From Acidimicrobiia bacterium (GTDB lineage: Bacteria; Actinomycetota; Acidimicrobiia; Acidimicrobiales; Bin134), in assembly GCA_022822265.1 (NCBI GenBank), contig JAJECA010000047.1, positions 1,866 through 65,865 on the forward strand: a DNA stretch of 64,000 nucleotides, given 5' to 3'. Shown here piece after piece: positions 44,816-59,561 of this stretch; the stretch's first letter is position 1; each line of letters opens with the position of its first letter. The position numbers and the translations under genes are program-made. The notes under the pieces were generated by a model. That model saw only the letters and a program-made list of their open reading frames with translations. It was not told where the DNA came from and did no database searches.

Positions 44816-46054
44816 ATGACCGGGCCATGGCGCCAAGCCGCGGCCGTCGCTATGGCCGCGGCCCTGCTGGCGGCCTCCTGCGGCGGCTCGGGCGGGGATG
44901 AATCCGGTGGCGCCGGCTCGGGCAGCGGTGGAGCATCCGGCCCCGACTCGGAGCTGGTCATCGGGCGGGTGTTGCCGGAAACGGGAACGCTGGCCGCCAT
45001 CGGCGGGCCGATCATCGCCGGAGTGGATCTGGGGGTGGCAGATGTGGTGGCCGCCGGCGGCCGGGTTCGCCTGCTCAAAGGGGACTCGGGCACCGATCCC
45101 GATGTGGCGTCGGAGACGGTCAACCGCCTGCTGGGAGAGGGCGCCCAAGCCATCATTGGCGCGGCGGCCTCGGGAGTGTCACAGGCGATCATCCAAACTC
45201 TGTACGACGCCCAGATTCCCCAGTGCGCGGCGTCCAATACGTCGCCCTCTTTCTCCACTCAGGACAACGCCGAGTACTACTTCCGCACGGTGACCACCAG
45301 CCATGCCGAAGCCCCGGTCATGGCCAACAGCCTGGCGGCCGGCGGGGCCACATTTGCTGCTGTTGTGGCCCGATCTGACGACTACGGAAACGCGCTGGCC
45401 CGCCTTCTCGTCGAAGAACTGAACAAGCTGGGGATTGCCGCCGAGATCGTGTCGTATTCCCCCGATGCCCCCAACTTCGATGCCACGGTTCAGGAAGTGC
45501 TGGCCAAGGGAGTCGATTCGGTGGGCCTGATCGCCTTCGAAGAGGGGATCGCCATTCTCCGGGGATTCCTGGAATCTGGCATCCCCCCTCGGGCGGTGCA
45601 TGTTGCGGCCGGGCTCTACGACGTGACGTTGGCCGAGAGGGTCAACCCCTCAGATCCGACGGTGTTGGACGGACTGCGGATCCACGTGCCCTCTGGGGAT
45701 GATGCGTTCAACCAGCGAGTGCAGGAGCTGACCCACGGAAACGTGAGCTTTGGTGGACAGGCATACGACTGCGTGGTGGTGTTGTCGCTGGCCTATCTGG
45801 CCGCGGGATCGGCCTCGGGACCCGACTTTGTTGCGGCGGTTTCCGGGTTGACCCGAGACGGTCAGAAGTGCTTTTCGTACGCCGAGTGCGCCGAGCTGCT
45901 GGCCTCCGGCGTGGACATCGACTACGACGGGGTCTCTGGGCCGCTGGAACTTGACGAGGTGGGCGATCCCACCGTGGGCCGGTATCTGGTGAGCGAGGTG
46001 CGCGGTGGCGAGCTTGTCGTGGTGCAGACCACCGATTGGTCTGTGGACCGATAA
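44816..46054 (+). CDS. LivJ-type (Peripla_BP_6) ABC substrate-binding lipoprotein, module A
   Basis: Lipobox LLAASC. ELVIGRVLPETGTLAAIGG, GDSGTDPDVASETVNRLLGEGAQAIIGAAASG, YYFRT. Confidence 0.85.
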   Translation: MTGPWRQAAAVAMAAALLAASCGGSGGDESGGAGSGSGGASGPDSELVIGRVLPETGTLAAIGGPIIAGVDLGVADVVAAGGRVRLLKGDSGTDPDVASETVNRLLGEGAQAIIGAAASGVSQAIIQTLYDAQIPQCAASNTSPSFSTQDNAEYYFRTVTTSHAEAPVMANSLAAGGATFAAVVARSDDYGNALARLLVEELNKLGIAAEIVSYSPDAPNFDATVQEVLAKGVDSVGLIAFEEGIAILRGFLESGIPPRAVHVAAGLYDVTLAERVNPSDPTVLDGLRIHVPSGDDAFNQRVQELTHGNVSFGGQAYDCVVVLSLAYLAAGSASGPDFVAAVSGLTRDGQKCFSYAECAELLASGVDIDYDGVSGPLELDEVGDPTVGRYLVSEVRGGELVVVQTTDWSVDR

Positions 46055-46075: not shown

Positions 46076-46768
46076 ATGAGCGATCCGGTAGAGCCCTCGG
46101 TCGGGATCGGGGTCGTCCATCTGTTCGGCAAGCTCGGCCCGACTGACGACCGCTCCCAGCAGAAGCGAGACATCAAACAGGCCGTCGAGAACGCCGAGCT
46201 CGTGGGAGTCCAGGTGGTGACGGTGGCCGTGCTCGGCCACAAGGCCGACATCGGGTTCATGGCCCTGCACGCCGACCTCTGGGAACTGCGGGACTTTCAG
46301 ACCGCCCTGAGCCAAGCAGGGCTCGACATCGTGGACTCCTACGTGTCGCTCACCGAGCTGTCGGAGTACGCCGTCGGGCTGCCCGAGGAGACCAAGCAGG
46401 CCCGGCTGTATCCCCAGCTGCCTCCCGAGGGCAAGCCGGCATGGTGCTTTTATCCCATGTCCAAGCGCCGCAACCCCGACCAGAACTGGTACGAGCTGCC
46501 CTTCGAGCGCCGCCGAGAGCTCATGTACGAGCATGGGGCCACCGGCCGCACTTTCGCCGGGCGGGTGCTCCAGCTCATCACCGGCTCTACCGGCATCGAC
46601 GACTACGAGTGGGGGGTGACCCTGTTCTGCGAGCACCCCGACGACCTGAAAGAGGTGGTGTACACCATGCGCTACGACGTGGCGTCGGCCCGCTACGCCG
46701 AGTTCGGCCCCTTCTATACCGGAATGGTGGCCCCGGTGAAGACCGTCCTCGACCGACTGGCAAAGTAA
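46076..46768 (+). CDS. hemQ: Coproheme decarboxylase / chlorite-dismutase-family heme synthase (HemQ/ChdC)
   Basis: WCFYPMSKRRNPDQNWYELPFERRRELMYEHG...YEWGVTLF. Confidence 0.88.
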   Translation: MSDPVEPSVGIGVVHLFGKLGPTDDRSQQKRDIKQAVENAELVGVQVVTVAVLGHKADIGFMALHADLWELRDFQTALSQAGLDIVDSYVSLTELSEYAVGLPEETKQARLYPQLPPEGKPAWCFYPMSKRRNPDQNWYELPFERRRELMYEHGATGRTFAGRVLQLITGSTGIDDYEWGVTLFCEHPDDLKEVVYTMRYDVASARYAEFGPFYTGMVAPVKTVLDRLAK

Positions 46769-46807: not shown

Positions 46808-48037
46808 ATGAGGAGAGCTCGCCGGTTCTGGGCAGTTGTCATAGTGGCGCTGATTGCCGCCGGGTGCGGAAATGACGACGACGGAGGTGATGCCAGATCG
46901 CCGGCTGCGCCAGCGCCAGGCGATGCCGAGCTGGTGATCGGCTCGGTGATGCCCGAGACGGGGTCGCTGGCGTTGTTTGGCCCGGCGATGATCGTGAGCA
47001 TCGACCTAGCGGTCCAAGACATCCAGGCTGCGGGCGGGAACGTACGTCTTTTGACCGGTGATTCGGCCACCGATCCCGACGTAGCTCCTGAAACCGTCAA
47101 TCGGCTCTTAGGCGAGGGTGCTCGGGTGATCGTGGGGGCATCGGCATCGGGGGTGTCGCAATCTTTCATCCAGACCCTCTATGACGCCCAGATTCCCCAA
47201 TGCTCGCCGTCGAACACTTCAACATCGTTCTCAACCCAGGAGAACGCCGCCTACTACTTCCGAACGGTGCCACCCACCCAAGCGGCCGCGTTGATCTTGG
47301 CCGACATGGTGGCGGGAGAGGGTGCCACCAACGTGGCGTTGCCCACCCGAGCTGACGACTGGGGCAATTCCCTGGCCGCCCTGCTGGTGCAGAGCTTCGA
47401 TGCGTTGGGAGTGGAGAGTCGGATCATCGCCTATGACGAGGACGCCGCCAGCTTCGATGCCACCGTGGCAGCAATTGAGGATATGAGAGCGGATGCAGTG
47501 GTGCTCATCTCCTTCGCAGAGGGGGCGCAGATCATCAGGGGTCTGCTGGAGGCAGGAGTGCCCCCAACCGCCATTTACGGCAGCGACGGAATCTACGCAC
47601 CGAATCTGAACGAGTTGGTGGACCCAACCAACCCCAGCGTTATTGACGGGTTCAAAGCGATCACCGTGGGAGGCGGAGAAGAGTTCAACCTGCGCCTCGC
47701 GCCCCTTACTGGCGGCAATGTGCTCTACGGCGCCCAGGCCTACGACTGCGTGGCGGTGCTGGCTCTCGCGTCGCTGGCCGCCGGCTCCACCGATGGTGCC
47801 GACATCATCGGGCAGGTGCAGGCGGTGACAACCGGCGGTGAGAAGTGCTCCGACTACCGCGGTTGCGCCGACCTTATGGCCGACGGGGTGGACGTCGACT
47901 ACGACGGAGTCTCCGGTCCGCTGGAGCTCGACGAGGTGGGCGATCCCCGCTACGGTAAGTATGTCGTCGCCGAGTTCATCGACGGAGAATTCGTTGTGAT
48001 CGGTACCCGAGACGCCGACCTCGCTGCGGTGGGCTGA
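46808..48037 (+). CDS. LivJ-type ABC substrate-binding lipoprotein, module B
   Basis: Lipobox LIAAGC. ELVIGSVMPETGSLALFG, GDSATDPDVAPETVNRLLGEGARVIVGASASG. Confidence 0.85.
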   Translation: MRRARRFWAVVIVALIAAGCGNDDDGGDARSPAAPAPGDAELVIGSVMPETGSLALFGPAMIVSIDLAVQDIQAAGGNVRLLTGDSATDPDVAPETVNRLLGEGARVIVGASASGVSQSFIQTLYDAQIPQCSPSNTSTSFSTQENAAYYFRTVPPTQAAALILADMVAGEGATNVALPTRADDWGNSLAALLVQSFDALGVESRIIAYDEDAASFDATVAAIEDMRADAVVLISFAEGAQIIRGLLEAGVPPTAIYGSDGIYAPNLNELVDPTNPSVIDGFKAITVGGGEEFNLRLAPLTGGNVLYGAQAYDCVAVLALASLAAGSTDGADIIGQVQAVTTGGEKCSDYRGCADLMADGVDVDYDGVSGPLELDEVGDPRYGKYVVAEFIDGEFVVIGTRDADLAAVG

Positions 48038-48144
48038 ACCCGGCCCCTAAACGCGGGATAGAGGCACCGAATAAGGCGGTTCTTGATCTGCTTTTGTAGC
48101 GTGAAGGGTCGAAACCGGTACTCATCTCAGTGCAGGAGGGGAAA

Positions 48145-50586
48145 ATGGCGGAGAAATTCTGGACTCGGTTGATTGCTGTTCTGGCAGTCGTGGCGCTGGT
48201 GGCAATCGCCTGCGGCAACGATGACAGTGATGACGAGACGCCAGGGGCCGAGCCCACTGAGGATTCCGAGACTGCTCCGGCGCCAGCCCCGGGAGAAGAT
48301 GGCGATGAGGAGCTTGTCATCGGCTCGATGATGCCGGAAACCGGCGCGCTGGCCTTTTTGTCAACGCCGATGATCCGCAGCATCGCCCTAGCGGTCGAGG
48401 ACATCCAGGCGGCCGGCGGAAACGTCCGGCTGCTTACCGGCGACACCGGCACCGATCCGGATGTCGCCCCCGAGGCGGTGAATCGGCTGCTGGGCGAGGG
48501 TGCCCATGTGATTGTGGGGGCGGCCTCCTCGGGCATCTCCCAGTCGTTCATCCAGACGCTGTACGACGCCCAGATTCCCCAGTGCTCGCCGTCGAACACA
48601 TCGCCGTCGTTCAGCACCCAGGCCAACGCGGCGTTCTACTTCCGCACCGCGCCGCCCGATCAGGCCGCCGCGCCGGTGCTGGCCAATCTGATTGCGGCCG
48701 ATGGGGCCACCAACGTGGCCATCGTGGCCCGCGCCGATGACTGGGGCATTGCCCTGTCTGGCCTGCTGGCGAACAGCCTGGCCGATCTGGGGGTGGCTTC
48801 CGAGACCATCTCCTATGACGAGGAGGCATCGACCTTCGATTCCACCGTCGACTCGGCCACTGGTATGGGAGCCGACGCGGTGGCGCTGATCTCGTTCGCC
48901 GAGGGCGCGCAGATCATTCGGGACCTATTGGAGGCAGGTGTGCCGCCCAGCGCCATGTACGGACCCGACGGCATGTACGACCCGGGATTGCCCGATCTGG
49001 TTGATCCATCCAATCCGAATGTGGTCGACGGGTTCACCGCCATCACTGTGGCCAATACGGCGGGTCAGGCCGGCGATGACTTCGAGGCCCGTTTGGTGGA
49101 GTTGATCGGCGATGAGGAGGGGGTGGCCTTTGCCGGCAACTCCTACGACTGTGTGGTCGTGCTGGCCCTCGCGTCGCTGGCCGCCAGCTCCACCCGGGGC
49201 CCCGACATCATCGCCCAGGTTGCCGCGGTCACCTCCGGTGGTGAGAAGTGCTTCTCCTACGGAGAGTGCGCTGGTCTTCTGTCCGATGGCGCCGACATCG
49301 ACTACGACGGTGTGTCCGGGCCGCTGGAGCTCGACGAGGTGGGCGATCCGAGCTTTGCCCGCTACAAAATCGGCCAGTTCCAAGACGGAGCGCTGGCCGA
49401 GATGGGCACCCAGGACGTGAACCTGGATGGTACCTCCGGCGCTGCGCCGGACTCACCGAGCGCAGCGGGCCAGCCTGAGTTGGTGATTGGGCGGGTTATG
49501 CCCGAAACCGGCGCGCTGGCCTTTTTGGCCCCGCCGATGGTGGAGGCGGCCCGGCTAGCCGTTGAGGATGTCCAGGCCGCAGGGGGAAACGTCCGGATGC
49601 TGACCGGTGATACCGGCACCGATCCCGATGTGGCCTCCGAGGCGGTGAACCGGCTATTGGGCGAGGGTGCCGATGTGATCGTGGGAGCGGCCGCGTCGGG
49701 CATCTCACAGTCGTTCATCCAGACGCTGTACGACGCCCAGATTCCGCAGTGTTCGCCGTCGAACACATCTCCGTCGTTCTCCACCCAGGACAACGCCACC
49801 TTCTACTTCCGAACCGTGCCGCCCGATCAGGCCGTATCGCCGATCATCGCCAACGTGGTGGCCGCCGATGGGGCCACCAATGTGGCCATCGTGGCTCGGG
49901 CCGACGACTACGGCAACGCGCTGGCTGACCTGGTCAAAGCCGGTTTGGAAGATCTGGGTGTGTCCTCCGAAGTGGTCTCCTACTCCCCGGACGCGCCCAG
50001 TTTTGACGACACGGTGACCGAAGTGCAGGGCATCGGGGCCGACGCGGTGGTGCTGATCGCCTTTGGCGAGGGCGCGGGGATCATCCGGGGGCTGCTGGAG
50101 TCCGGGGTGCCGGCCCGGGCCATGTACGGATCTGACGGGCTGTTCGACCCGGGCCTGCCCGGCCAAGTCGACCCGTCGGATGCCGGGGTCATCAACGGCA
50201 TGCAGGTGATCGCCGCCGCGGGCGGGACCGACTTCAGCGTTCGGCTCAGCGAGTACACCGGGGCCAACCTGAGCTACGGCGGCCAGTCTTACGACTGCGT
50301 GATCGTGATGGCGCTGGCTGCGCTGGCCGCCGGCTCCACCGCTGGCCCGGACATCATCGCCCAGGTGCAGAACGTTACCGGCGGCGGGACCAAGTGCTAC
50401 GACTACGGCGAGTGCGCCGGCCTGCTGGCCGAAGGTGCCGACATCGATTACGAGGGCGTGTCCGGCCCGCTTGATCTCGACGAAGTGGGCGACCCAACCT
50501 GGGGCCGCTACATCATCGCCCAGTACCAGGGCGGCGACCTCGTCCCCATCGACAGCCAAGATGTGGACGTAACCACCCTGGGCTAA
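48145..50586 (+). CDS. Fused double LivJ-type substrate-binding lipoprotein (modules C1 and C2 in one polypeptide)
   Basis: There is a single lipobox (LVAIAC). Two full SBP bodies begin near 48310 and near 49476, joined by the linker LDGTSGAAPDSPSAAGQP. ATG 48145 follows RBS GGAGGGG; the ORF-track GTG 48130 is an alternative start. Confidence 0.85.
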   Translation: MAEKFWTRLIAVLAVVALVAIACGNDDSDDETPGAEPTEDSETAPAPAPGEDGDEELVIGSMMPETGALAFLSTPMIRSIALAVEDIQAAGGNVRLLTGDTGTDPDVAPEAVNRLLGEGAHVIVGAASSGISQSFIQTLYDAQIPQCSPSNTSPSFSTQANAAFYFRTAPPDQAAAPVLANLIAADGATNVAIVARADDWGIALSGLLANSLADLGVASETISYDEEASTFDSTVDSATGMGADAVALISFAEGAQIIRDLLEAGVPPSAMYGPDGMYDPGLPDLVDPSNPNVVDGFTAITVANTAGQAGDDFEARLVELIGDEEGVAFAGNSYDCVVVLALASLAASSTRGPDIIAQVAAVTSGGEKCFSYGECAGLLSDGADIDYDGVSGPLELDEVGDPSFARYKIGQFQDGALAEMGTQDVNLDGTSGAAPDSPSAAGQPELVIGRVMPETGALAFLAPPMVEAARLAVEDVQAAGGNVRMLTGDTGTDPDVASEAVNRLLGEGADVIVGAAASGISQSFIQTLYDAQIPQCSPSNTSPSFSTQDNATFYFRTVPPDQAVSPIIANVVAADGATNVAIVARADDYGNALADLVKAGLEDLGVSSEVVSYSPDAPSFDDTVTEVQGIGADAVVLIAFGEGAGIIRGLLESGVPARAMYGSDGLFDPGLPGQVDPSDAGVINGMQVIAAAGGTDFSVRLSEYTGANLSYGGQSYDCVIVMALAALAAGSTAGPDIIAQVQNVTGGGTKCYDYGECAGLLAEGADIDYEGVSGPLDLDEVGDPTWGRYIIAQYQGGDLVPIDSQDVDVTTLG

Positions 50587-50620: not shown

Positions 50621-51352
50621 TCACGCCTGGGCTAGAGTGCCCAGGTAGAGGCTGACCACCTTGGGGTCTTCCAGGAGTTGCTGGCCGGTGCCGGTGTAGG
50701 CGTTGGCGCCCTGGTCGAGCACGTAGCCCCGATCGCTTATCTGGAGGCAGCGGCGGGCGTTCTGCTCCACCATGATGATTGACACTCCGTGGTCGGTGAT
50801 GGAGGTAATCCGCTCGAACACCTCGTCTTGGTAGGCGGGGGATAGCCCGGCGGAGGGCTCGTCTAAGAGCACCACTTTGGGGTCCATCATGAGCGCTCGG
50901 CCGATGGCCACCATTTGGCGCTCGCCTCCCGACAGGCCGTCGGCCCGCTGGCCGCTGCGCTCGCCCAGCAGCGGGAACAACTCGGCCACCACCTCAAAGC
51001 GGGCAGAGAACTGCTTGGGGTCTTGGAACACCCCCATTTCAAGGTTCTCCCGGATCGACAGCCGGGGGAACACATTGTCGGTCTGGGGGACGAAGCCGAT
51101 GCCTCGGGCTACCAACTCGTGGGGACTCAGCCCGGTGATTTCCTCGGTGCCCAGGCGGATGGCACCGCCTCGCACGTCCACGATGCCGAAAATGGCTTTC
51201 AGCAAGGTGGACTTGCCTGCTCCGTTGGGGCCGATCACCCCGACGATCTCGCCCGGGTGCAACTCCAGCGAGCACCCGGTGAGAATGTCGATGCCCGGCA
51301 AGTATCCGGCCACCACATCATCGGCGGTCAAAAGCGGCGGGGAGGAGGTCAT
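50621..51352 (-). CDS. livF: Branched-chain amino acid-type ABC transporter ATP-binding protein (LivF-like)
   Basis: GPNGAGKSTLLK, LSGGERQMVAIGRAL. ATGA overlap with the livG-like gene. Confidence 0.9.
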   Translation of the reverse strand: MTSSPPLLTADDVVAGYLPGIDILTGCSLELHPGEIVGVIGPNGAGKSTLLKAIFGIVDVRGGAIRLGTEEITGLSPHELVARGIGFVPQTDNVFPRLSIRENLEMGVFQDPKQFSARFEVVAELFPLLGERSGQRADGLSGGERQMVAIGRALMMDPKVVLLDEPSAGLSPAYQDEVFERITSITDHGVSIIMVEQNARRCLQISDRGYVLDQGANAYTGTGQQLLEDPKVVSLYLGTLAQA

Positions 51353-52257
51353 GCTTCGGTTCCTGCCCGTCGGCGGCCCAGATACGCGTCGATGACCGAC
51401 TCGTCGTGGATGACCTTCCATGGGCCTCCCTCGGCGATGACCCGCCCCTGGGCCAACACCACCACCCAGTCGCTGATACCCGACACCACGTCCATGTCAT
51501 GCTCGATGTACACCACGCTTACCCCGCTGAGTGCGAGTTGGGTGATGTGGCCCAGCAGAGACTGGGCCAACGCGGGGTTCACCCCGGCCATGGGCTCGTC
51601 CAGCATCACGAGGGCTGGGTCAGACATCAGCGCCCGGGCCACCTCCAGCAGCTTGCGCTGGCCACCGGACAGGGTGCCGGCCAGCTCGTCGCGCATGCGG
51701 GCCAGGTTGAACTGCTCCAACAGCTCGTCGGCCCGCTCGGTATTGGTCCGCTCCTGGTTTCGCCACAAGTGCCGGAAGGGAGCGGCCCACAGTCGCTCGC
51801 CCATTTGGTTAGGGGCCCCCAGCAGCATGTTCTGGAGCACCGAGAGCTTGGCTAGCGATTTGGTGAGCTGGAAAGTGCGGACCATGCCCCGTCGGGCCAG
51901 TCGGTCGGGCGACGGTGAAGTCACCATTTGGCCGTTGAACTCCCAGCGCCCGTGGTCGGCCCGGTCGAAGCCGGTGAGCAGGTTGAACAGCGTTGTCTTC
52001 CCCGCGCCATTGGGGCCGATCAGAGCGGTGACGATCCCCCGTTCGATCTCCAGGTGGTCGACATCCACCGCGGTGAGCCCGCCAAAGCTCCGCCGGAGTC
52101 CGTCCATTGTCAAGATGGGGTTGGGCTTGGCCACACCGGGCTCGGGGTGAACGGTGAGGATGGGCTCAACCTCGGTTGTGCGGCGAGCGGAATCCAGCAG
52201 CATCGAGCGGTCTTCGGGCGCGGACGGACCTTCGGGCGGTGGGCGGTCAGCGGGCAT
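51349..52257 (-). CDS. livG: Branched-chain amino acid-type ABC transporter ATP-binding protein (LivG-like)
   Basis: GPNGAGKTTLFNLLTG, LSGGQRKLLEVARAL. Has an N-terminal extension; the start is uncertain. Confidence 0.88.
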   Translation of the reverse strand: MPADRPPPEGPSAPEDRSMLLDSARRTTEVEPILTVHPEPGVAKPNPILTMDGLRRSFGGLTAVDVDHLEIERGIVTALIGPNGAGKTTLFNLLTGFDRADHGRWEFNGQMVTSPSPDRLARRGMVRTFQLTKSLAKLSVLQNMLLGAPNQMGERLWAAPFRHLWRNQERTNTERADELLEQFNLARMRDELAGTLSGGQRKLLEVARALMSDPALVMLDEPMAGVNPALAQSLLGHITQLALSGVSVVYIEHDMDVVSGISDWVVVLAQGRVIAEGGPWKVIHDESVIDAYLGRRRAGTEA

Positions 52258-53254
52258 CGAGTTGCATTTCTATTCGGTTGCCGGTGATCCCCTGGGGGCG
52301 GAACAACATGAGCAGCACGAGGGCTAGGCCTACCATCGCCACGCTGATGATGCCCTCGGAACCCTCGAGGAAGTCGGCTATGGCACCGGGCAGCCAGGCC
52401 TCGGCGGAAAGCTGCCGCAGGAACGACTCGATCCATTCTCGCAGGAACCAGAACAGAATCGCTCCCAGTACCGGCCCCATATAGGTAGCCGCCCCGCCCA
52501 GCAGCAGCGCGGTGTAGGTGTAGAAGGTCACTTGAGGGCGAAAGCCGTTGGGGTCGGCCCCCGAGGTCTTGATGGCGTCGATCACCCCGGCCATCCCGCC
52601 GATGACCCCGCCGATCATGAGCGCCTGCATCTTGTACCAGAACACGTTCTTGCCCAGGCTGCGAGCGGCGTCCTCGTCCTCCCGGATGGACTTCAGCACC
52701 CGGCCCCACGGGCTGCGGATGATGAGGAACACGATCAAGCTGACCAGCGCCACCAGTACCCAGCCCACGGTGATTACCCACATCTGCTGGCCGGTGAACG
52801 CGAAGGTGCCCACGCCATAGCGGTCTTGCGGCCCGTCGGCATACGGGTTGAGGTCGAAGAACGCTCCGGCGTCGAAGCTCACGCTCAGCGGTCCGCCGGT
52901 GAGGCCGATGGCGTCGGTGGAGCCGATGAGGATGCGGATGATCTCGGCGGCGGCGATGGTGACGATGGCGAACATCACCGCGTGGAGCCGCAGGGTGGGG
53001 ATGCCCAGCGCCACCGCAAGCGCCAGGGCGAGGAAGAGGCCGATAGGGATGCCGACCCACAGCGACCAACCGAAGGTGGCCACCGCAACGCTGGTGCCGT
53101 AGGCCCCCAGCATGATGAACCCCACTTGACCGAAGTTCAAAAGCCCGGTGAAACCGAAGTGGATGTTCAGCCCAATAGCGGCCAAGGCCAAGATGATGGC
53201 TTCAGGGCCGAAGGCGGCTCGGGCCGCGTTGCCAAAGATGATGTCGAAGTCCAC
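52247..53254 (-). CDS. livM: Branched-chain amino acid-type ABC transporter permease (LivM-like)
   Basis: Polytopic membrane protein. GLNIHFGFTGLLNFGQVGFIMLGAY. Confidence 0.85.
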   Translation of the reverse strand: MDFDIIFGNAARAAFGPEAIILALAAIGLNIHFGFTGLLNFGQVGFIMLGAYGTSVAVATFGWSLWVGIPIGLFLALALAVALGIPTLRLHAVMFAIVTIAAAEIIRILIGSTDAIGLTGGPLSVSFDAGAFFDLNPYADGPQDRYGVGTFAFTGQQMWVITVGWVLVALVSLIVFLIIRSPWGRVLKSIREDEDAARSLGKNVFWYKMQALMIGGVIGGMAGVIDAIKTSGADPNGFRPQVTFYTYTALLLGGAATYMGPVLGAILFWFLREWIESFLRQLSAEAWLPGAIADFLEGSEGIISVAMVGLALVLLMLFRPQGITGNRIEMQLDAR

Positions 53255-54529
53255 CTATCCCACCCGCGCCCTGATTCCGAACAGGCCTTGCGGACGCAGC
53301 AGCAACACCAGGATGAGGGCGGCCAGCGGCACCACGAACTTCAGCTCTGGAGAGATCCAAAGAGTGCTTACCTCGGTTGACATGCCGATGATGAGCGATC
53401 CGGCCAGAGCGCCGTAGGCCGTGCCCAGCCCACCCAGTTCCACGCCGGCGAAAATCAGCAGCAGAAGCTGGAAGCCCAGAAACGGGTCGATGTCGGCGTC
53501 GAGACCCTGGAAAACGCCTCCGAGGCCGGCTAGCGCCGCCCCCATTATCCACACGATGAGCACTACCCGGTTCACGTTGATGCCCGAAACCGCGGCCAGG
53601 TCGGCATTGTCGGCCACTGCCCGAGTGGCTTTGCCGAACCGGGTCTTCTGAAGCATCAGCCCCACGGCCACTAGGGCGACAAGGATGACTGCGATGGTGG
53701 CCACCTCCCGAGGGGTGACTGCCCACGGGCCAAACTCCCAGCGCTCCTGTACTTGGAAGTCTCGGTAAGGGAGGGGCTCGGCCCCGAAGAAAAGCTGGAC
53801 TAGCTGTCGTCCCAGCAGTGACAGCCCGATGGTGATAACCACGAGTTGGAAGATGCCCAGCCGTCGGTCTCGCAGTGGGCGGAACAAGCCCGATTCCAAA
53901 CCGGCGCCCAGCATTCCGCACACAATCACGGTGAGCACGGCGGCCACAATCAGATTCAGCTCACCCCATGAGCTGTTGAAGTACCAGGCGATCACCGCGC
54001 CGAACGTGACCAGTTCGCCGTGGGCGAAGTTGACCAGACCGGTGGTTCCGTAGATGAGCGACAGCCCAATTGCACTCATGGCGATGATGAGACCGAACTT
54101 GAAGCCGTTGAACACCGTCTGGGCAGCCCGCTCGCCGAAAGGCGTCCCCTTGGGGGCTTCTCCCACGGCGAACACAACCGCCCGGGATTGGCCTGCGTCC
54201 ACCACGGCATCCACGAGGGATTCTTGGCCCTCCCGCAACCTGATGCCTTCGGGAAGGGTGCCGGTGTCGATACTCACCCGGTAGGCGCCGGGGCCCGGCA
54301 CTGGCACGCTCCACCGGCCATCGGTATCAGTGACCGCCTGTCCGATCTCTGCGCCCGACGAGTCGGCCACCGTGATTGCCACGCCCTCGAAGAACTGGTC
54401 GAAGCCGAAGCGGATGGTTCCGTTCAGCTGGGTCTGGCCGGGTTCGGCACCGTCTTGGGCCAGCGCAGGCACCGCCAGCATCATCGACAGGCCCAATGCC
54501 AATCCAAGGAGAATTGTCCCCCTCCGCAC
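53255..54529 (-). CDS. livH: Branched-chain amino acid-type ABC transporter permease (LivH-like) with an N-terminal signal peptide and extra secreted domain
   Basis: Permease core GLSLIYGTTGLVNFAHGE. The first ~130 aa are MRRGTILLGLALGLSMMLAVPALA plus VAITVADSSGAEIGQAVTDTDGRWSVPVPGPGAYRVSI. Confidence 0.85.
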   Translation of the reverse strand: MRRGTILLGLALGLSMMLAVPALAQDGAEPGQTQLNGTIRFGFDQFFEGVAITVADSSGAEIGQAVTDTDGRWSVPVPGPGAYRVSIDTGTLPEGIRLREGQESLVDAVVDAGQSRAVVFAVGEAPKGTPFGERAAQTVFNGFKFGLIIAMSAIGLSLIYGTTGLVNFAHGELVTFGAVIAWYFNSSWGELNLIVAAVLTVIVCGMLGAGLESGLFRPLRDRRLGIFQLVVITIGLSLLGRQLVQLFFGAEPLPYRDFQVQERWEFGPWAVTPREVATIAVILVALVAVGLMLQKTRFGKATRAVADNADLAAVSGINVNRVVLIVWIMGAALAGLGGVFQGLDADIDPFLGFQLLLLIFAGVELGGLGTAYGALAGSLIIGMSTEVSTLWISPELKFVVPLAALILVLLLRPQGLFGIRARVG

Positions 54530-54606
54530 TCCTGTTGAGCGTAGTGCTCCATCTGTCGGCGTTGGGGGTGTAGCGGTGCAAGGGCCACAATAGGGAGGTG
54601 GGCGAC

Positions 54607-55425
54607 ATGGAGCGGCTTCGGTCCGACCTGGCCGAGTTGGGCAGGGTGGTGGTGGCCTTCAGCGGCGGCGCCGATTCATCGCTCCTCGCCTGGGTGGCCC
54701 ATGATGTGCTGGGTGGCCGGGCTCACGCTGTGACCGCGGTGTCGCCCTCGCTGGCCAGCGCCGAACGGGAGGATTGCGCAGCGCTGGCTGCCGAGTGGGG
54801 GCTGCGGTGGAGCGAGGTGCGAACCGCCGAGATGGAACAGGCTGCCTATGTGGCCAACGACGGCGACCGCTGCTACTGGTGCAAGGATGCGCTAATGGAC
54901 GCGGTGGCGCCATTGGCCGAAACCACTTCGGCAACGGTGGCTCTCGGGGTTAATACCGATGACCTGAGCGACCACCGCCCCGGCCAGCAGGCCGCCGAAG
55001 AGCGGGGCGCAGTGTTCCCCTTCGTGGATGCCGGTTTCTCGAAGGCCGATGTGCGGGAGTGGTCTAAGCGGCTGGGGCTGCGGACTTGGGACAAGCCGGC
55101 TGCGCCATGCCTGGCCTCCCGGATTCCCTACGGCACGCCGGTGACCCTGGGGGCCCTGGCTTCTGTGGGCGACGCTGAGGCCGCCCTGCGCCGCTTGGGT
55201 TTCGCCGAGCTGCGGGTGCGCCACTATGGGGATGTGGCCCGCATCGAGGTGCCAGATGAGTGCTTGGCCGACGTGGTGGCCCAGCGGGCCGCGGTCGTCG
55301 AGGCGGTGCGCCAGGCCGGCTACCGGTACGCCACGCTGGATTTGGAGGGCCTCCGCTCCGGCAATCTGAACGCCGTCCTGGGCCTCGACCGGTCGGCATC
55401 GGGCCCATCGGCCCTGCGCCCTTGA
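54607..55425 (+). CDS. larE: LarE-family ATP-dependent (sacrificial) sulfur transferase, PP-loop ATPase
   Basis: PP-loop VAFSGGADSSLL, DRCYWCK, and PCLASRIPYG containing the conserved Cys. RBS AGGGAGG lies 8 nt before ATG 54607. Confidence 0.8.
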   Translation: MERLRSDLAELGRVVVAFSGGADSSLLAWVAHDVLGGRAHAVTAVSPSLASAEREDCAALAAEWGLRWSEVRTAEMEQAAYVANDGDRCYWCKDALMDAVAPLAETTSATVALGVNTDDLSDHRPGQQAAEERGAVFPFVDAGFSKADVREWSKRLGLRTWDKPAAPCLASRIPYGTPVTLGALASVGDAEAALRRLGFAELRVRHYGDVARIEVPDECLADVVAQRAAVVEAVRQAGYRYATLDLEGLRSGNLNAVLGLDRSASGPSALRP

Positions 55426-55892
55426 CCGACGCCGAGCTGCGGGCTGCCGAACAGCAGCTTGGCGAGTGCGCTCAGGAGTTGGCAGAGGAAATCAGGCAAG
55501 CTCTGCCCCTATGGGTGGTGTCGGCGGTGGAAGCCCGTCTGCCGGAGATCGACCCTGAAACCCGCAAAGCGGCCGAGGCGGCCGGATTGGCTGCGGCGGC
55601 TGAGATCGGAGGCGAGGTGACCCGGTTGCTGGCCGCCGACATCGACCACCAGCGGGAGAATCCCCTCACCGTCCTGCGCCGGGCAGTTCGCTACCCCACC
55701 GAGGTGCTGAGCGCCGCCGGCGCAATCCCGGTGGAGCGGGACGACTTCGCCATCGACCGCTTCCCCGACGACGCCTATGACCTGACTCCGGCGTCATTCG
55801 CCGACATTCATCCCGACCTTCAGACCCCCGGATTGGAGTGGGGGGCGGCCAAGGCCTTTGTGCACCGCCGACGCCACCGCCGTTCCCGTTAG
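55422..55892 (+). CDS. Hypothetical protein; start uncertain (TTG 55422 overlapping the larE stop)
   Basis: Open frame with a coding-like, Ala/Glu-rich helical N-terminal part and a basic tail HRRRHRRSR. I recognise no family. Confidence 0.4.
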   Translation: MTDAELRAAEQQLGECAQELAEEIRQALPLWVVSAVEARLPEIDPETRKAAEAAGLAAAAEIGGEVTRLLAADIDHQRENPLTVLRRAVRYPTEVLSAAGAIPVERDDFAIDRFPDDAYDLTPASFADIHPDLQTPGLEWGAAKAFVHRRRHRRSR

Positions 55893-55972
55893 AGACAGTT
55901 CAGGGCCATCCCCGCCAAACCTGACATACTGACTTTGCCAACAGGCGGAATAGTCGTCAACCAAGGGGAGTT

Positions 55973-57172
55973 GTGATGGACGCTGATACCGCATGGGTAC
56001 TCGTATCTGCTGCGCTGGTCTTGTTCATGGTGCCGGGTCTGGCCTTGTTCTACGGGGGCATGGTCGGCCAGAAAAACGTGCTGAACATGATGAACATGAA
56101 CCTGTATTGCCTGGGCATCGTCCCCATTGTGTGGGCGGTGGCCGGTTTCGGGTTTGCCTCCGGCGACTGGAGCTTCCCGTTGTTCGGGGATTTCGACGCC
56201 GCCTGGCTCAACGGGGTTGACGACATGGTGGGCAAGCGGGAATTCGTGTTCGGTATGACCTTTGCCGCCATCACCCCCGCGCTCATCTCCGGTGCGGTGG
56301 CCGGACGGATGAAGTTCTCCGCCTGGGCCATCTTCGTGCCCGTCTGGTCGTTTTTGGTGTACTCGCCCGTGGTGTATTGGATCTACGGTGGCGAAGGCTG
56401 GATTGCCAACCTGCCAGCCCACGACTTCGCCGGCGGCACCGCCATCCACATAAACGCCGGTGCGGCTGCCTTGGCCTTGGTTCTCGTCCTCGGCCCCCGC
56501 AAGGGATGGCCCCGAGATGTGGACTTCCCCCACAACCTGCCGCTGGTGTTGCTAGGGGCCGGCATCCTGTGGTTCGGCTGGTTCGGCTTCAATGCTGGAT
56601 CGGCTTTGGCTGCCGATGCCGGTGCCTCCCATGCCTTCTTGACCACCTTCCTGGCGGCAGCCGCGGGGCTGTGCTCGTGGATGGTGGCCGAGACCATCAA
56701 GGACGGCAAGCCCACTGCACTGGGCATGGCCTCGGGCATTGTCGCCGCTCTGGTGGCCATCACCCCGGCAGCCGGTTTCGTGGGTGCTATGTCCTCCATC
56801 GTGATAGGCGCCGCGGCCGGGGTACTGTGCTTCCTGGCCATTGGGCTCAAGCTGCGATACAAGTACGACGACAGCCTCGATGTGGTGGGCATCCACATGT
56901 TCGGCGGCATCATCGGTGGCGTGCTGATCGGCTTCTTCGCCGACTCCGGCATCTACGAAGGGGCCGACTTCATCGAAGGTCTGTTTTTCGGCGGCGGCGA
57001 GCTGCTGGGCAACCAGATCATCTCCATCGTGGCGGTCATGGCCTACAGCTTCGTGGCCACCTACATCATCGCCTTGGTGCTCCACCGCACCATGGGGATT
57101 CGGGCCTCTGCCGAGGACGAGAGCGTAGGTCTCGACCAGTCGCACCACGCTGAAACGGCATACAACAACTAG
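55973..57172 (+). CDS. amt: Ammonium transporter (Amt family)
   Basis: DTAWVLVSAALVLFMVPGLALFYGG, DFAGGTAIHINAG, LDVVGIHMFGG. GTG 55973 and ATG 55976 are both possible starts. Confidence 0.95.
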   Translation: MMDADTAWVLVSAALVLFMVPGLALFYGGMVGQKNVLNMMNMNLYCLGIVPIVWAVAGFGFASGDWSFPLFGDFDAAWLNGVDDMVGKREFVFGMTFAAITPALISGAVAGRMKFSAWAIFVPVWSFLVYSPVVYWIYGGEGWIANLPAHDFAGGTAIHINAGAAALALVLVLGPRKGWPRDVDFPHNLPLVLLGAGILWFGWFGFNAGSALAADAGASHAFLTTFLAAAAGLCSWMVAETIKDGKPTALGMASGIVAALVAITPAAGFVGAMSSIVIGAAAGVLCFLAIGLKLRYKYDDSLDVVGIHMFGGIIGGVLIGFFADSGIYEGADFIEGLFFGGGELLGNQIISIVAVMAYSFVATYIIALVLHRTMGIRASAEDESVGLDQSHHAETAYNN

Positions 57173-57218: not shown

Positions 57219-59561
57219 GTGGCAATTGGCGAGGCGAGAACGAGCGCACTGCGCCGTGACGAGCTGCTGGCCGATCGCGCCATGGTGGGGACAGTGCTGT
57301 GCCGGGCGTTGGCCCGTCGGACCGACGAGTGGCTCCAAAGCATCTTCGCTGCCGAGGTAGCCGACCCAGAGGGCATCGCGTTGGTGGCGGTGGGCGGGTA
57401 CGGCCGGGCCGAGCTGTGCCCTTACAGCGACATCGACCTGCTGCTGTTGCACCGCGACCGCCCCGACATCGGTGAAATCGCCCCTCGCCTGTGGTACCCC
57501 ATCTGGGATGAGGGGCTGAAGCTCGGCCATTCGGTGCGTACGCCCCGGGAGACCCGGGATTTGGCCAAGACCGATCTGGACACGGCCACATCTCTGCTGG
57601 ACGCCCGCCACATTGCCGGCGACTCGGAGCTGACCGCCGACTTGACCGCCGACAACGACAATCAGTGGCGTCGCAGCGCCCGCAAGTGGCTTCCCCTGCT
57701 GGCCCAGGGGGTAGCCGAGCGCCATCGGCGCTGCGGCGAGGTGGCGTTCAAGCTGGAACCCGACCTCAAGCAGGGCCGGGGGGGCCTGCGCGACCTCCAT
57801 GCGCTGCGGTGGGTGGAGGCCGCAGTATTCGAGATGGACGACGCCGACAGTCGCCAGCTGTGGTCCGACTACGAGGTGATCCTGGCCGCTCGGGCCGAGC
57901 TGCACCGCACCGCCGACCGCCCCGGCGACCAGCTCCTGCTCCAAGAACAAGACGGCGTGGCCGCCGCGCTGGACTATGGCGACGCCGATGAGCTGATGGG
58001 CGCCATCGCCAGCTCGGCTAGATCCATCGCCTGGCGCAGCGACGAGATCTGGGCCTGGCTGCGGGATTCCGAGATGCCCCCCGAATGGCGCCGTCGGCTG
58101 CGCCGCCGCCACAGCCGCAACAACGCCGAGCTGGATGCCGGTGTGGTGGTCCAAGAGGGCCGGGCGGTGCTGGCCGAGGGCGCCGACACCGCCGACCCCT
58201 GCACCGCGCTGCGCCTGGCCCGGGCCGCCGCCTCCCACGAGCTGCGCATGGACCGCACCAGCCTGGGGCGGCTGAACAAGCAAATGGCCCCCATGGCTGA
58301 CCGGTGGCCCGACGAGGCCCGCAAGCTGTTTGTGGACCTTTTGATGACCGGCACCGAGGCCCCCCCGGTGATCGAGGCTCTGGACCAGATGGACCTGTTC
58401 GTGCGCATCCTGCCCGAGTGGGCCCCCAACCGCAGCCGCCCCCAGCGCAACGCCTACCACCAGTTCACGGTGGACCGGCACCTGTGCGAGGCCGCCGCAT
58501 TGGCTGCCGACCTGGTCGACCGGGTGGACCGCCCCGACCTGCTGGTGCTGGGCGCCCTGCTCCACGACATCGGCAAGGGCTATCCCGGCGACCACACCGA
58601 GGTGGGCATGGAGCTGGTGGCCGACATCGCCCACCGAATGGGCTATCCCCCCACCGACGTGGACGTGCTGGTGGCCATGGTGGAGCACCACCTGCTGTTG
58701 CCCGATGTGGCCACCCGGCGTGACCTGGAAGATCCCGACACCATTGCCGAGGTGGCTCGACAGGCTGGCACGGTTGAAACTCTCCGCCTGCTGGGAGCCC
58801 TCACCGAGGCCGACTCGGTGGCCACCGGCCCGTCGGCGTGGAGCAAGTGGAAGGCCAGCCTGGTGCGTGAGCTGGTGGCCCGCTGCGCCCATGTGATGGA
58901 GGGCGGCGATATCGACGAGATCACCTCCCGGTTCCCCACCCCCGAGCAGCGGGGGATGATGGAGGCTGGCGAGCGATTGGTACTGGGCGAGGGCGACACC
59001 CTGTTGGTGATCGCCCCCGATCAACACGGCATGTTCTCGCGGGTGGCCGGGGCTCTGGCCCTCAGCGGGCTGCGGGTGCTTTTGGCCGCGGCCCATTCTG
59101 AGTATGGGATGGCGTTGGAGCGGTTCCAGGTGGAGAGCACCCTGGGGCTGGAGATCGACTGGCCCCAGGTCACGGCCTATGTGGAGCAGGCCCTGGCCGG
59201 CCGCCTGGCCATCGAGGCCCGCCTGGCCGAGCGGATCAGCACCTATGAGGTTGAGCCCGACTTCACCCCCCGGCCGGTTATCGCCCCCAAGGTGAGCGTG
59301 GACAACGATTCCTCCTCCACCGCCACCATCATCGAGTTGGCCGCCCAGGCCCGCATCGGCCTGCTGAGCCGGGTGACCAGCGCCCTGTCGCAGCTCGGGC
59401 TGGACATTCTCAGCGCCAAGGTGCAAGACCTCGGTGGGGATGTGGTCCACGCCTATTACGTGCGCGACGGCGAGGGCAACAAGGTGACCGACCAAGAACA
59501 CTTAAGCGAGATCAATCTGGCCCTTCAGCACGCCATCGATACCTGCTCTACTCGGGTATGA
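57219..59561 (+). CDS. glnD: [Protein-PII] uridylyl/adenylyl-transferase GlnD
   Basis: Nucleotidyltransferase motif VGGYGRAELCPYSDIDLLLL, HD domain LLHDIGKG, and two C-terminal ACT-like repeats. Confidence 0.9.
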   Translation: MAIGEARTSALRRDELLADRAMVGTVLCRALARRTDEWLQSIFAAEVADPEGIALVAVGGYGRAELCPYSDIDLLLLHRDRPDIGEIAPRLWYPIWDEGLKLGHSVRTPRETRDLAKTDLDTATSLLDARHIAGDSELTADLTADNDNQWRRSARKWLPLLAQGVAERHRRCGEVAFKLEPDLKQGRGGLRDLHALRWVEAAVFEMDDADSRQLWSDYEVILAARAELHRTADRPGDQLLLQEQDGVAAALDYGDADELMGAIASSARSIAWRSDEIWAWLRDSEMPPEWRRRLRRRHSRNNAELDAGVVVQEGRAVLAEGADTADPCTALRLARAAASHELRMDRTSLGRLNKQMAPMADRWPDEARKLFVDLLMTGTEAPPVIEALDQMDLFVRILPEWAPNRSRPQRNAYHQFTVDRHLCEAAALAADLVDRVDRPDLLVLGALLHDIGKGYPGDHTEVGMELVADIAHRMGYPPTDVDVLVAMVEHHLLLPDVATRRDLEDPDTIAEVARQAGTVETLRLLGALTEADSVATGPSAWSKWKASLVRELVARCAHVMEGGDIDEITSRFPTPEQRGMMEAGERLVLGEGDTLLVIAPDQHGMFSRVAGALALSGLRVLLAAAHSEYGMALERFQVESTLGLEIDWPQVTAYVEQALAGRLAIEARLAERISTYEVEPDFTPRPVIAPKVSVDNDSSSTATIIELAAQARIGLLSRVTSALSQLGLDILSAKVQDLGGDVVHAYYVRDGEGNKVTDQEHLSEINLALQHAIDTCSTRV

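Follow-up and report, generated by a model that had tools for sequence, protein, structure and literature searches.

A predicted lipoprotein with two LivJ-type substrate-binding modules, encoded beside a livFGMH set in a sponge-associated actinobacterium

The window analysed here, a stretch of 64,000 nucleotides (contig JAJECA010000047.1 of assembly GCA_022822265.1, positions 1,866 to 65,865, forward strand) from a sponge-associated actinobacterium of the class Acidimicrobiia, contains at 48145-50586 a gene that joins two complete substrate-binding proteins (SBPs) of the LivJ type behind one lipoprotein signal (coordinates throughout are those of the window unless a locus is named). We consider it likely, with a probability of roughly 0.7, that the product is a lipid-anchored two-site receptor whose LivJ-type modules (module 1, C1; module 2, C2) feed a single importer of the HAAT type.

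The reading frame, 48130-50586 on the plus strand, runs for 818 codons with no interruption, and its likely start, ATG 48145, which is common to orthologues L001-L003 and L006, yields a product of 813 amino acids (aa) laid out as follows.

48133-48138 (+): Shine-Dalgarno-like AGGAGG, 6 nucleotides (nt) 5' of ATG 48145 (from the sequence)
48145-48213 (+): signal peptide and lipobox LAVVALVAIA-C23, residues 1-23 (PROSITE-style pattern, hydrophobicity)
48214-48309 (+): acidic, proline-rich disordered tether of 32 aa, residues 24-55 (structure prediction, substitution rate)
48310-49428 (+): SBP module 1 (C1), LivJ-type cluster B fold, residues 56-428 (Pfam, module model, structure prediction)
49429-49476 (+): inter-module linker GTSGAAPDSPSAAGQP, 16 aa, residues 429-444 (structure prediction, orthologue alignment)
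49477-50586 (+): SBP module 2 (C2), residues 445-813, and stop codon (Pfam, module model, structure prediction)

A PROSITE PS51257-style lipobox pattern is matched at residues 13-23 (LAVVALVAIAC), ending at the predicted lipidation site Cys23, which is kept in at least 90% of fused homologues; the N-terminus holds the only strongly hydrophobic, signal-like stretch in the protein, and AlphaFold2 (AF2) predicts a helix at residues 3-19. Two stretches match both Peripla_BP_6 (PF13458, 199.9 bits against a cut-off of 31.7) and ANF_receptor (PF01094, 141.7 bits) in Pfam, and a hidden Markov model built from four local copies of the module places the modules at residues 56-429 and 445-811. Both begin with ELVIG, at nt 48310 and 49477, matching the positions given in an earlier reading of the sequence (the original prediction), whose description of two complete LivJ-type SBPs joined by a Pro/Ser/Ala linker behind one lipoprotein signal is borne out by Pfam, the module model and the lipobox. 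That reading had missed two further copies: the module repeat is present four times in register at this locus, not twice, the others being the upstream single-module paralogues A and B described below. The tether and linker have AF2 confidence (predicted local distance difference test, pLDDT) below 50 over residues 16-53 and 429-442, respectively; among orthologues the tether evolves rapidly (non-synonymous rate, dN, 0.09-0.54) and the linker shows a ratio to the synonymous rate (dN/dS) of 0.18-0.61. A scan for promoters and terminators returned counts at or below shuffle expectation.

A full-length structure prediction, proposed as a check in the original prediction, was run with AF2 on a 49-sequence alignment of fused homologues and gave two confident modules (mean pLDDT 84.8; mostly 75-95 in module 1 and 80-97 in module 2) with a disordered tether and linker. 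The predicted TM-score (pTM) was 0.51, and the relative orientation of the modules is therefore undefined. In the model the two-lobe alpha/beta Venus-flytrap fold superimposes on solved LivJ/LivK-type proteins. The best Foldseek match in the PDB was 3td9 (target-normalised TM-score, TMt, 0.88; root-mean-square deviation 2.6 Å), with 4gnr, 4n0q and 3ip5 at a TMt of 0.83; the leading matches are amino-acid-binding proteins of the LivJ/LivK type or structures determined with an amino-acid ligand, among them 4n0q with leucine, 8wch with pyroglutamate, and Atu2422. Sequence identity to these matches is about 20%, and a sequence search of the PDB was concordant; no PDB chain found by Foldseek spans both modules (query-normalised score, TMq, at most 0.39).

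Five residues of Escherichia coli LivJ, namely S79, T102, Y150, Y202 and E226, contact the ligand backbone. Four of these have the following equivalents.

LivJ S79: S129 (module 1), S518 (module 2)
LivJ T102: T152 (module 1), T541 (module 2)
LivJ Y150: W200 (module 1), Y589 (module 2)
LivJ E226: D275 (module 1), D664 (module 2)

Serine, threonine and aspartate at the equivalents of S79, T102 and E226 are placed robustly by alignment and recur in 47-49 of the 49 fused homologues, and the position of Y150 is tyrosine or tryptophan in all 49; the equivalent of Y202 is an invariant phenylalanine (F251/F640) whose placement moves by three residues between alignments. The modules resemble E. coli LivJ and LivK in fold and, as far as the sequence alignment shows, at these backbone positions (serine, threonine, an aromatic and an acidic residue, with Asp for Glu226). 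Across eight close orthologues, 44 sites are fixed within each clade of modules yet differ between C1 and C2, W200/Y589 among them. Given these fixed differences and an overall identity of 68%, the modules probably have distinct specificities or affinities. Each module also carries four cysteines at matching positions (C147, C336, C369 and C375 in module 1; C536, C718, C751 and C757 in module 2), which include an invariant CxxxxxC motif (C369/C375 and C751/C757). E. coli LivJ has a single disulfide; the pattern here suggests, in contrast, two disulfides per module.

That the fusion is genuine, with artefact or a decaying half excluded for practical purposes, follows from its distribution and from the selection on its modules. 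A genome scan with one genome per species gave 37 loci, all with metagenome-assembled genome (MAG) titles (Acidimicrobiia/Acidimicrobiales, including Candidatus (Ca.) Poriferisocius and Ca. Aldehydirespiratoraceae; the Sva0996 marine group; and unclassified bacteria). Two modules lie within a single open reading frame (ORF) in 12 of these loci, seven of which hold orthologues of the window gene at 85-96% identity from independent assemblies; the nearest relatives are 94-96% identical to the window protein. Four of the orthologues come from chromosome-scale MAG records (OZ241977, OZ246892, OY762975 and OZ242338, from Ca. Poriferisocius/Acidimicrobiales). Were the gene really a pair of ordinary neighbouring SBP genes whose intervening stop codon and second signal peptide had been lost to an assembly or sequencing error, it would have counterparts, since split, adjacent single-module genes do occur in relatives (L013, L014, L017 and L031), the split forms returned by the survey of related genomes that the original prediction had suggested. 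Such an error is nevertheless scarcely credible: all seven orthologues read through the junction in frame, with substitutions and one in-frame length difference of one residue there (L005); the junction contains no hydrophobic segment (maximum Kyte-Doolittle value 1.2); the C1 and C2 clades hold fused members only among the loci sampled; and protein searches of several data sources returned upwards of 55 fused homologues, with identities of 35-95% and lengths of about 780-870 aa, of which those with names are annotated as Ca. Poriferisocius, Chloroflexota/Chloroflexi and uncultured Ilumatobacter. Both modules are under purifying selection, with dN/dS values against orthologues of 0.08-0.16 for module 1 and 0.04-0.15 for module 2.

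The fusion is also old. The original prediction had read the near-identical stretches shared by the two halves as a mark of recent duplication or ongoing gene conversion, and the similarities themselves are largely as it described them: 48331-48360 and 49498-49527 do match at 29 of 30 positions, and the block of about 60 nt at 48544/49711 is indeed nearly identical, with three mismatches rather than the two reported. The repeat period is 1167 nt, falling to 1146 nt past a 7-codon indel, and exact C1/C2 runs of 38 and 24 nt occur. Over their whole length, however, C1 and C2 share only 67.8% of amino acids, 72.3% of nucleotides and 57.6% of third positions, and their synonymous divergence (dS) of about 0.74 exceeds that between orthologues (0.5 or less). 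In neighbour-joining trees the modules from eight genomes sort into a C1 clade and a C2 clade, both at 100% bootstrap, whilst the sisterhood of C1 and C2 receives 43%. Four-taxon site patterns comparing the window with each orthologue were orthologous at 136-239 sites and concerted at 1-12, the latter no commoner than the cross patterns that serve as a homoplasy control (0-11), and the longest run of identical synonymous codons was not significant in a permutation test (p=0.26); on these two results gene conversion in the window lineage was rejected.

The near-identical blocks fall where all four paralogues are best conserved and even C1 and paralogue B reach 85-90% aa identity. Core codons 30-120 show a same-codon identity between C1 and C2 of 74%, against 57% elsewhere (p=0.008, for a region chosen post hoc), an excess absent from every other paralogue pair; in orthologue L012 the halves are 98.9% identical over core nt 180-270, and some more remote fused homologues have DNA-identical halves. 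These observations would suit a young or homogenised pair, but in the best-conserved segment C1 and C2 of the window (91.1%) are no more alike than C1 and C2 taken from different genomes (92.2% and 94.4%). Since cross-genome pairs are equally similar in core codons 30-120, any conversion predates the species split, and the sequences leave room for, at most, an old and partial conversion tract surviving in the N-terminal third. Recent duplication or continuing conversion we accordingly regard as improbable; the fusion was already in place before the species with orthologues of about 85% identity diverged, and it is kept by selection. The loci sampled yielded no split orthologue of C1 or C2, and the fusion may have arisen either by internal duplication or by the joining of adjacent paralogues.

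Directly downstream, on the opposite strand and convergent with the fused gene, lies a complete livFGMH set (50621-54529), which provides the genomic context of a HAAT-type importer (TC 3.A.1.4).

50621-51421 (-): livF-like ATP-binding cassette (ABC) ATPase, convergent with the fused gene (ORF limits; the start is probably a Met at about 51352; Pfam ABC_tran)
51349-52257 (-): livG-like ABC ATPase (Pfam ABC_tran and BCA_ABC_TP_C)
52247-53254 (-): livM-like permease (Pfam BPD_transp_2)
53255-54529 (-): livH-like permease (Pfam BPD_transp_2 at residues 140-409; NCBIfam LivH/UrtB-like)

The same convergent pairing of a fused SBP gene with livFGMH is found at locus L039, which holds a homologue of 70% identity, at L040 and L041 (the uncultured Ilumatobacter homologue) and at L043, where the homologue is annotated as Chloroflexota. 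Besides the fused protein, no LivJ-type SBP was called in the fetched loci L039, L040 and L043, and the double protein can therefore be the sole locally encoded receptor.

In the mechanism that we propose, the parts of the receptor would be strung like beads, in the order lipidated Cys23, 32-residue tether, module 1, 16-residue linker and module 2. Each module would bind an alpha-amino-acid-like ligand independently of the other, and the two would dock singly, by turns, on one LivHM-GF translocator of the HAAT family, that encoded convergently; paralogues A and B would probably use the same translocator. Fusion would supply two sites per lipid anchor in a ratio fixed at 1:1, and would hold the second receptor close to the translocator, at a distance of a few nanometres, much like the tandem substrate-binding domains SBD1-SBD2 of the GlnPQ transporter.

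Several considerations weigh against this proposal. The roles in binding and transport are deduced from sequence, fold and context, and module 2, which lies farther from the anchor, would have to reach LivHM. A weak interface between the modules may exist beside the arrangement modelled by AF2. The LivJ positions were mapped by sequence alignment to E. coli LivJ at about 20% identity, and in the C-terminal half (LivJ Y202 and F276) the mapping depends on the alignment, with shifts of up to five residues. The NCBIfam model for the LivJ subfamily, NF011933, gives 80.9 bits and does not reach its cut-off of 477. The protein is thus LivJ-like in fold and lies outside the E. coli-type high-affinity LivJ/LivK subfamily; with that cut-off missed, we infer a ligand that is amino-acid-like rather than specifically branched-chain.

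As judged by sequence comparison, fusion of this kind is recurrent in Acidimicrobiia and Chloroflexota. At L007 and L011 the orthologue of paralogue B makes up the opening module of another, distinct fused gene (80% bootstrap), which is probably a second and independent fusion. The database homologues P0006, P0019 and P0056 (from Ca. Poriferisocius, Chloroflexota and uncultured Ilumatobacter) share the two-module layout of the window protein and, where checked, the convergent livFGMH genes; such homologues are annotated 'ABC transporter substrate-binding protein', none with recognition of the double architecture. The halves of the window gene have diverged, whereas those of some homologues are identical in DNA: ten remote fused proteins have halves that are 97-100% identical in aa, and the genes at L039 (4352-6820), L040 (8001-10517) and L041 (6555-9071) have halves whose DNA is 100% identical for over 1 kb; at L040 the tandem duplication is clean and in frame, extends from codon 47, in the tether, to the last codon, and has a novel junction of 11 nt. 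P0056-P0061 fall in different 90%-identity clusters, each with identical halves. This suggests either concerted evolution or the collapse of repeats assembled from short reads; collapse may make the halves look more alike than they are, although there could be no such junction with fewer than two copies. The longest chain, P0137 (1943 aa, from a representative library), has an N-terminal hydrophobic anchor followed by five LivJ-type modules that are 79-99% identical to one another, with linkers of 10-21 aa. Heterologous fusions (P0068-P0115, P0054 and P0188) join LivJ-type modules to SBPs of other families, as LivJ-type with NMT1/SsuA-like (about 765 aa, in many clusters), SBP_bac_3 with LivJ-type, and SBP_bac_1 with LivJ-type. 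One of them, at L042 (8001-10304), is followed by ABC_tran and BPD_transp_1 genes, and no LivHM gene lies within its 8-kb flanks, so a fused LivJ module need not dock to an adjoining LivHM. Fusions of the subfamily's modules with Ser/Thr kinases and with TIR/NB-ARC proteins occur as well. Among other nearest representatives at 50% identity, a re-scan found at least two such modules in three of 148, in keeping with the remark in the original prediction that covalently linked tandem SBPs are uncommon. We suggest, tentatively, that chains of LivJ-type modules on one anchor are a recurrent adaptation of marine and symbiotic monoderms (Acidimicrobiia, Chloroflexota) that raises the number of capture sites per anchor and transporter, and that they arise repeatedly by in-frame duplication or fusion of neighbours, their modules being kept identical by concerted evolution or, as here, diverging in specificity.

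Two other accounts of how the protein works have to be set against independent docking. The modules might not be independent equals, acting instead as a cooperative Venus-flytrap pair, or with one docking and the other serving as a capture or reservoir arm that hands over substrate or regulates docking. They belong to the ANF_receptor/Peripla_BP_6 superfamily, whose eukaryotic members (class C G-protein-coupled receptors and ANF receptors) work as dimers; the linker is short, at 16 aa; and the LivJ-type module at L042 is fused to an SBP of another family next to a transporter that is not LivHM. Either arrangement seems to us unlikely, however, given that AF2 predicts a disordered linker and, at a pTM of 0.51, no confident interface, that both modules retain the same ligand-anchoring positions under equally strong purifying selection, and that the exact homotypic duplications found elsewhere fit a multiplication of sites better than an obligate heterodimer. 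Less probable again is that the protein is a surface sensor, providing input to signalling or nitrogen regulation rather than to transport. The kinase and TIR/NB-ARC fusions of the subfamily would suit such a role, as would the nearby amt gene and the large ORF after it, which stands at the position of a GlnD-like gene in L039; yet the fused protein has no output domain, and the lipoprotein gene adjoins a complete livFGMH set in a pairing kept in loci of both Actinomycetota and Chloroflexota. A lipid-anchored receptor with two transport-competent sites is, on balance, the account that we favour.

The closest described parallel is GlnPQ of Lactococcus lactis and other Gram-positive bacteria, in which tandem SBD1 and SBD2, joined by a 14-residue linker in GlnP, have different specificities and affinities and compete to dock; these cluster F (SBP_bac_3) domains extend the GlnP permease at its N-terminus, which gives each transporter four sites (PMC8025302). 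Like GlnPQ, the present system places two complete domains on one polypeptide with a short flexible linker (16 residues), at a monoderm membrane beside one type I ABC translocator. Unlike GlnPQ, its modules are of cluster B (Peripla_BP_6/LivJ-type) and are carried by a separate lipoprotein with its own lipobox, the ORF ending at 50586 without a membrane domain, and the permeases, of the HAAT-family LivHM-GF type, have genes of their own on the opposite strand. It may, by analogy, be a functional counterpart of GlnPQ, and is not a member of the GlnPQ family. The comparison with E. coli LivJ and LivK is of another sort: there too several paralogous LivJ-type receptors, which differ in specificity, serve one LivHMGF translocator, as we suppose they do here, but the E. 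coli receptors are separate, soluble periplasmic proteins, whereas two of the four modules at this locus are covalently joined and predicted to be lipid-anchored, and the identity to LivJ and LivK is only about 20%, with the NCBIfam cut-off missed.

A search of the literature on lipoprotein or soluble tandem SBPs gave nothing relevant beyond GlnPQ and OpuA, and we found, in a literature whose coverage was incomplete, no description of tandem LivJ-type SBPs tethered as a lipoprotein; the literature found on Poriferisocius contained nothing on transport. GlnPQ is, to our knowledge, the only system in which the mechanism of tandem substrate-binding domains has been dissected, and there they sit within a permease and are of another class of SBP. 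A conserved, lipid-anchored double receptor of the LivJ type for a HAAT importer would therefore represent the tandem design reached by a different route and in a different family. The natural series present in relatives (genes fused or split, halves diverged or identical in DNA, and a five-module chain) allows tests of what covalent linkage contributes, candidate gains being local concentration, stoichiometry and broader specificity. The protein also bears on how cells that lack a periplasm, and feed on amino acids that are dilute or come from a host, increase their density of capture sites. Generic annotation has meanwhile left the double architecture overlooked in metabolic reconstructions of sponge symbionts.

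The two single-module paralogues lie upstream of the fused gene on the same strand.

44816-46054 (+): paralogue A, single-module lipoprotein of 412 aa (ORF, Pfam, identity)
46808-48037 (+): paralogue B, single-module lipoprotein of 409 aa (ORF, Pfam, identity)

Paralogue B ends 107 nt upstream of the fused gene and shares 65.7% aa identity with C1 and 61.1% with C2. Paralogue A is the most divergent copy, at 54-58% aa identity to the other modules, and carries alanine at the counterpart of LivJ Glu226, a position that is aspartate in B, C1 and C2; it may, to judge by this substitution, bind a different class of ligand. The signal peptide of paralogue B (46808-46870, plus strand) opens with MRRARRFWAVV and is twin-arginine-like, and the fused protein begins MAEKFWTRL, in which the paired arginines are absent, so that the single and double forms may be exported by different routes, twin-arginine translocation (Tat) and Sec.

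Between paralogues A and B lies a gene of the HemQ/chlorite-dismutase family, resembling hydrogen-peroxide-dependent heme synthase (46076-46768, plus strand). Related loci show a gap of similar size between the A-type gene and the next SBP gene, and at L039 a HemQ-like gene stands directly 5' of the fused SBP; no functional link between it and the SBPs was seen.

The LivH-like permease, at 424 aa against 308 aa in E. coli, has an N-terminal extension of about 135 aa that comprises a signal peptide and a CarboxypepD_reg-like beta-sandwich. The match to PF13620, at residues 35-107, scores 25 bits in the window, below the Pfam cut-off; for the Chloroflexota locus L043 the precomputed Pfam match to this domain is unmarked. 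Full-length extended LivH is encoded at 25 related loci, whether the SBPs are fused or single. A role for the extension as a docking adaptor for fused SBPs was considered and rejected, as it accompanies single SBPs too, and it is therefore a trait of the transporter subfamily and not of the fusion.

Beyond the liv genes, 54598-57172 (plus strand) carries a gene for a LarE-like ATP-dependent sulfur transferase and amt, for an ammonium transporter. The next ORF, of 780 aa (57219-59561, plus strand), occupies the post-amt position at which the corresponding L039 gene has GlnD-type domains; with amt and an ORF at this GlnD-like position, the locus lies beside genes of nitrogen acquisition and nitrogen regulation.

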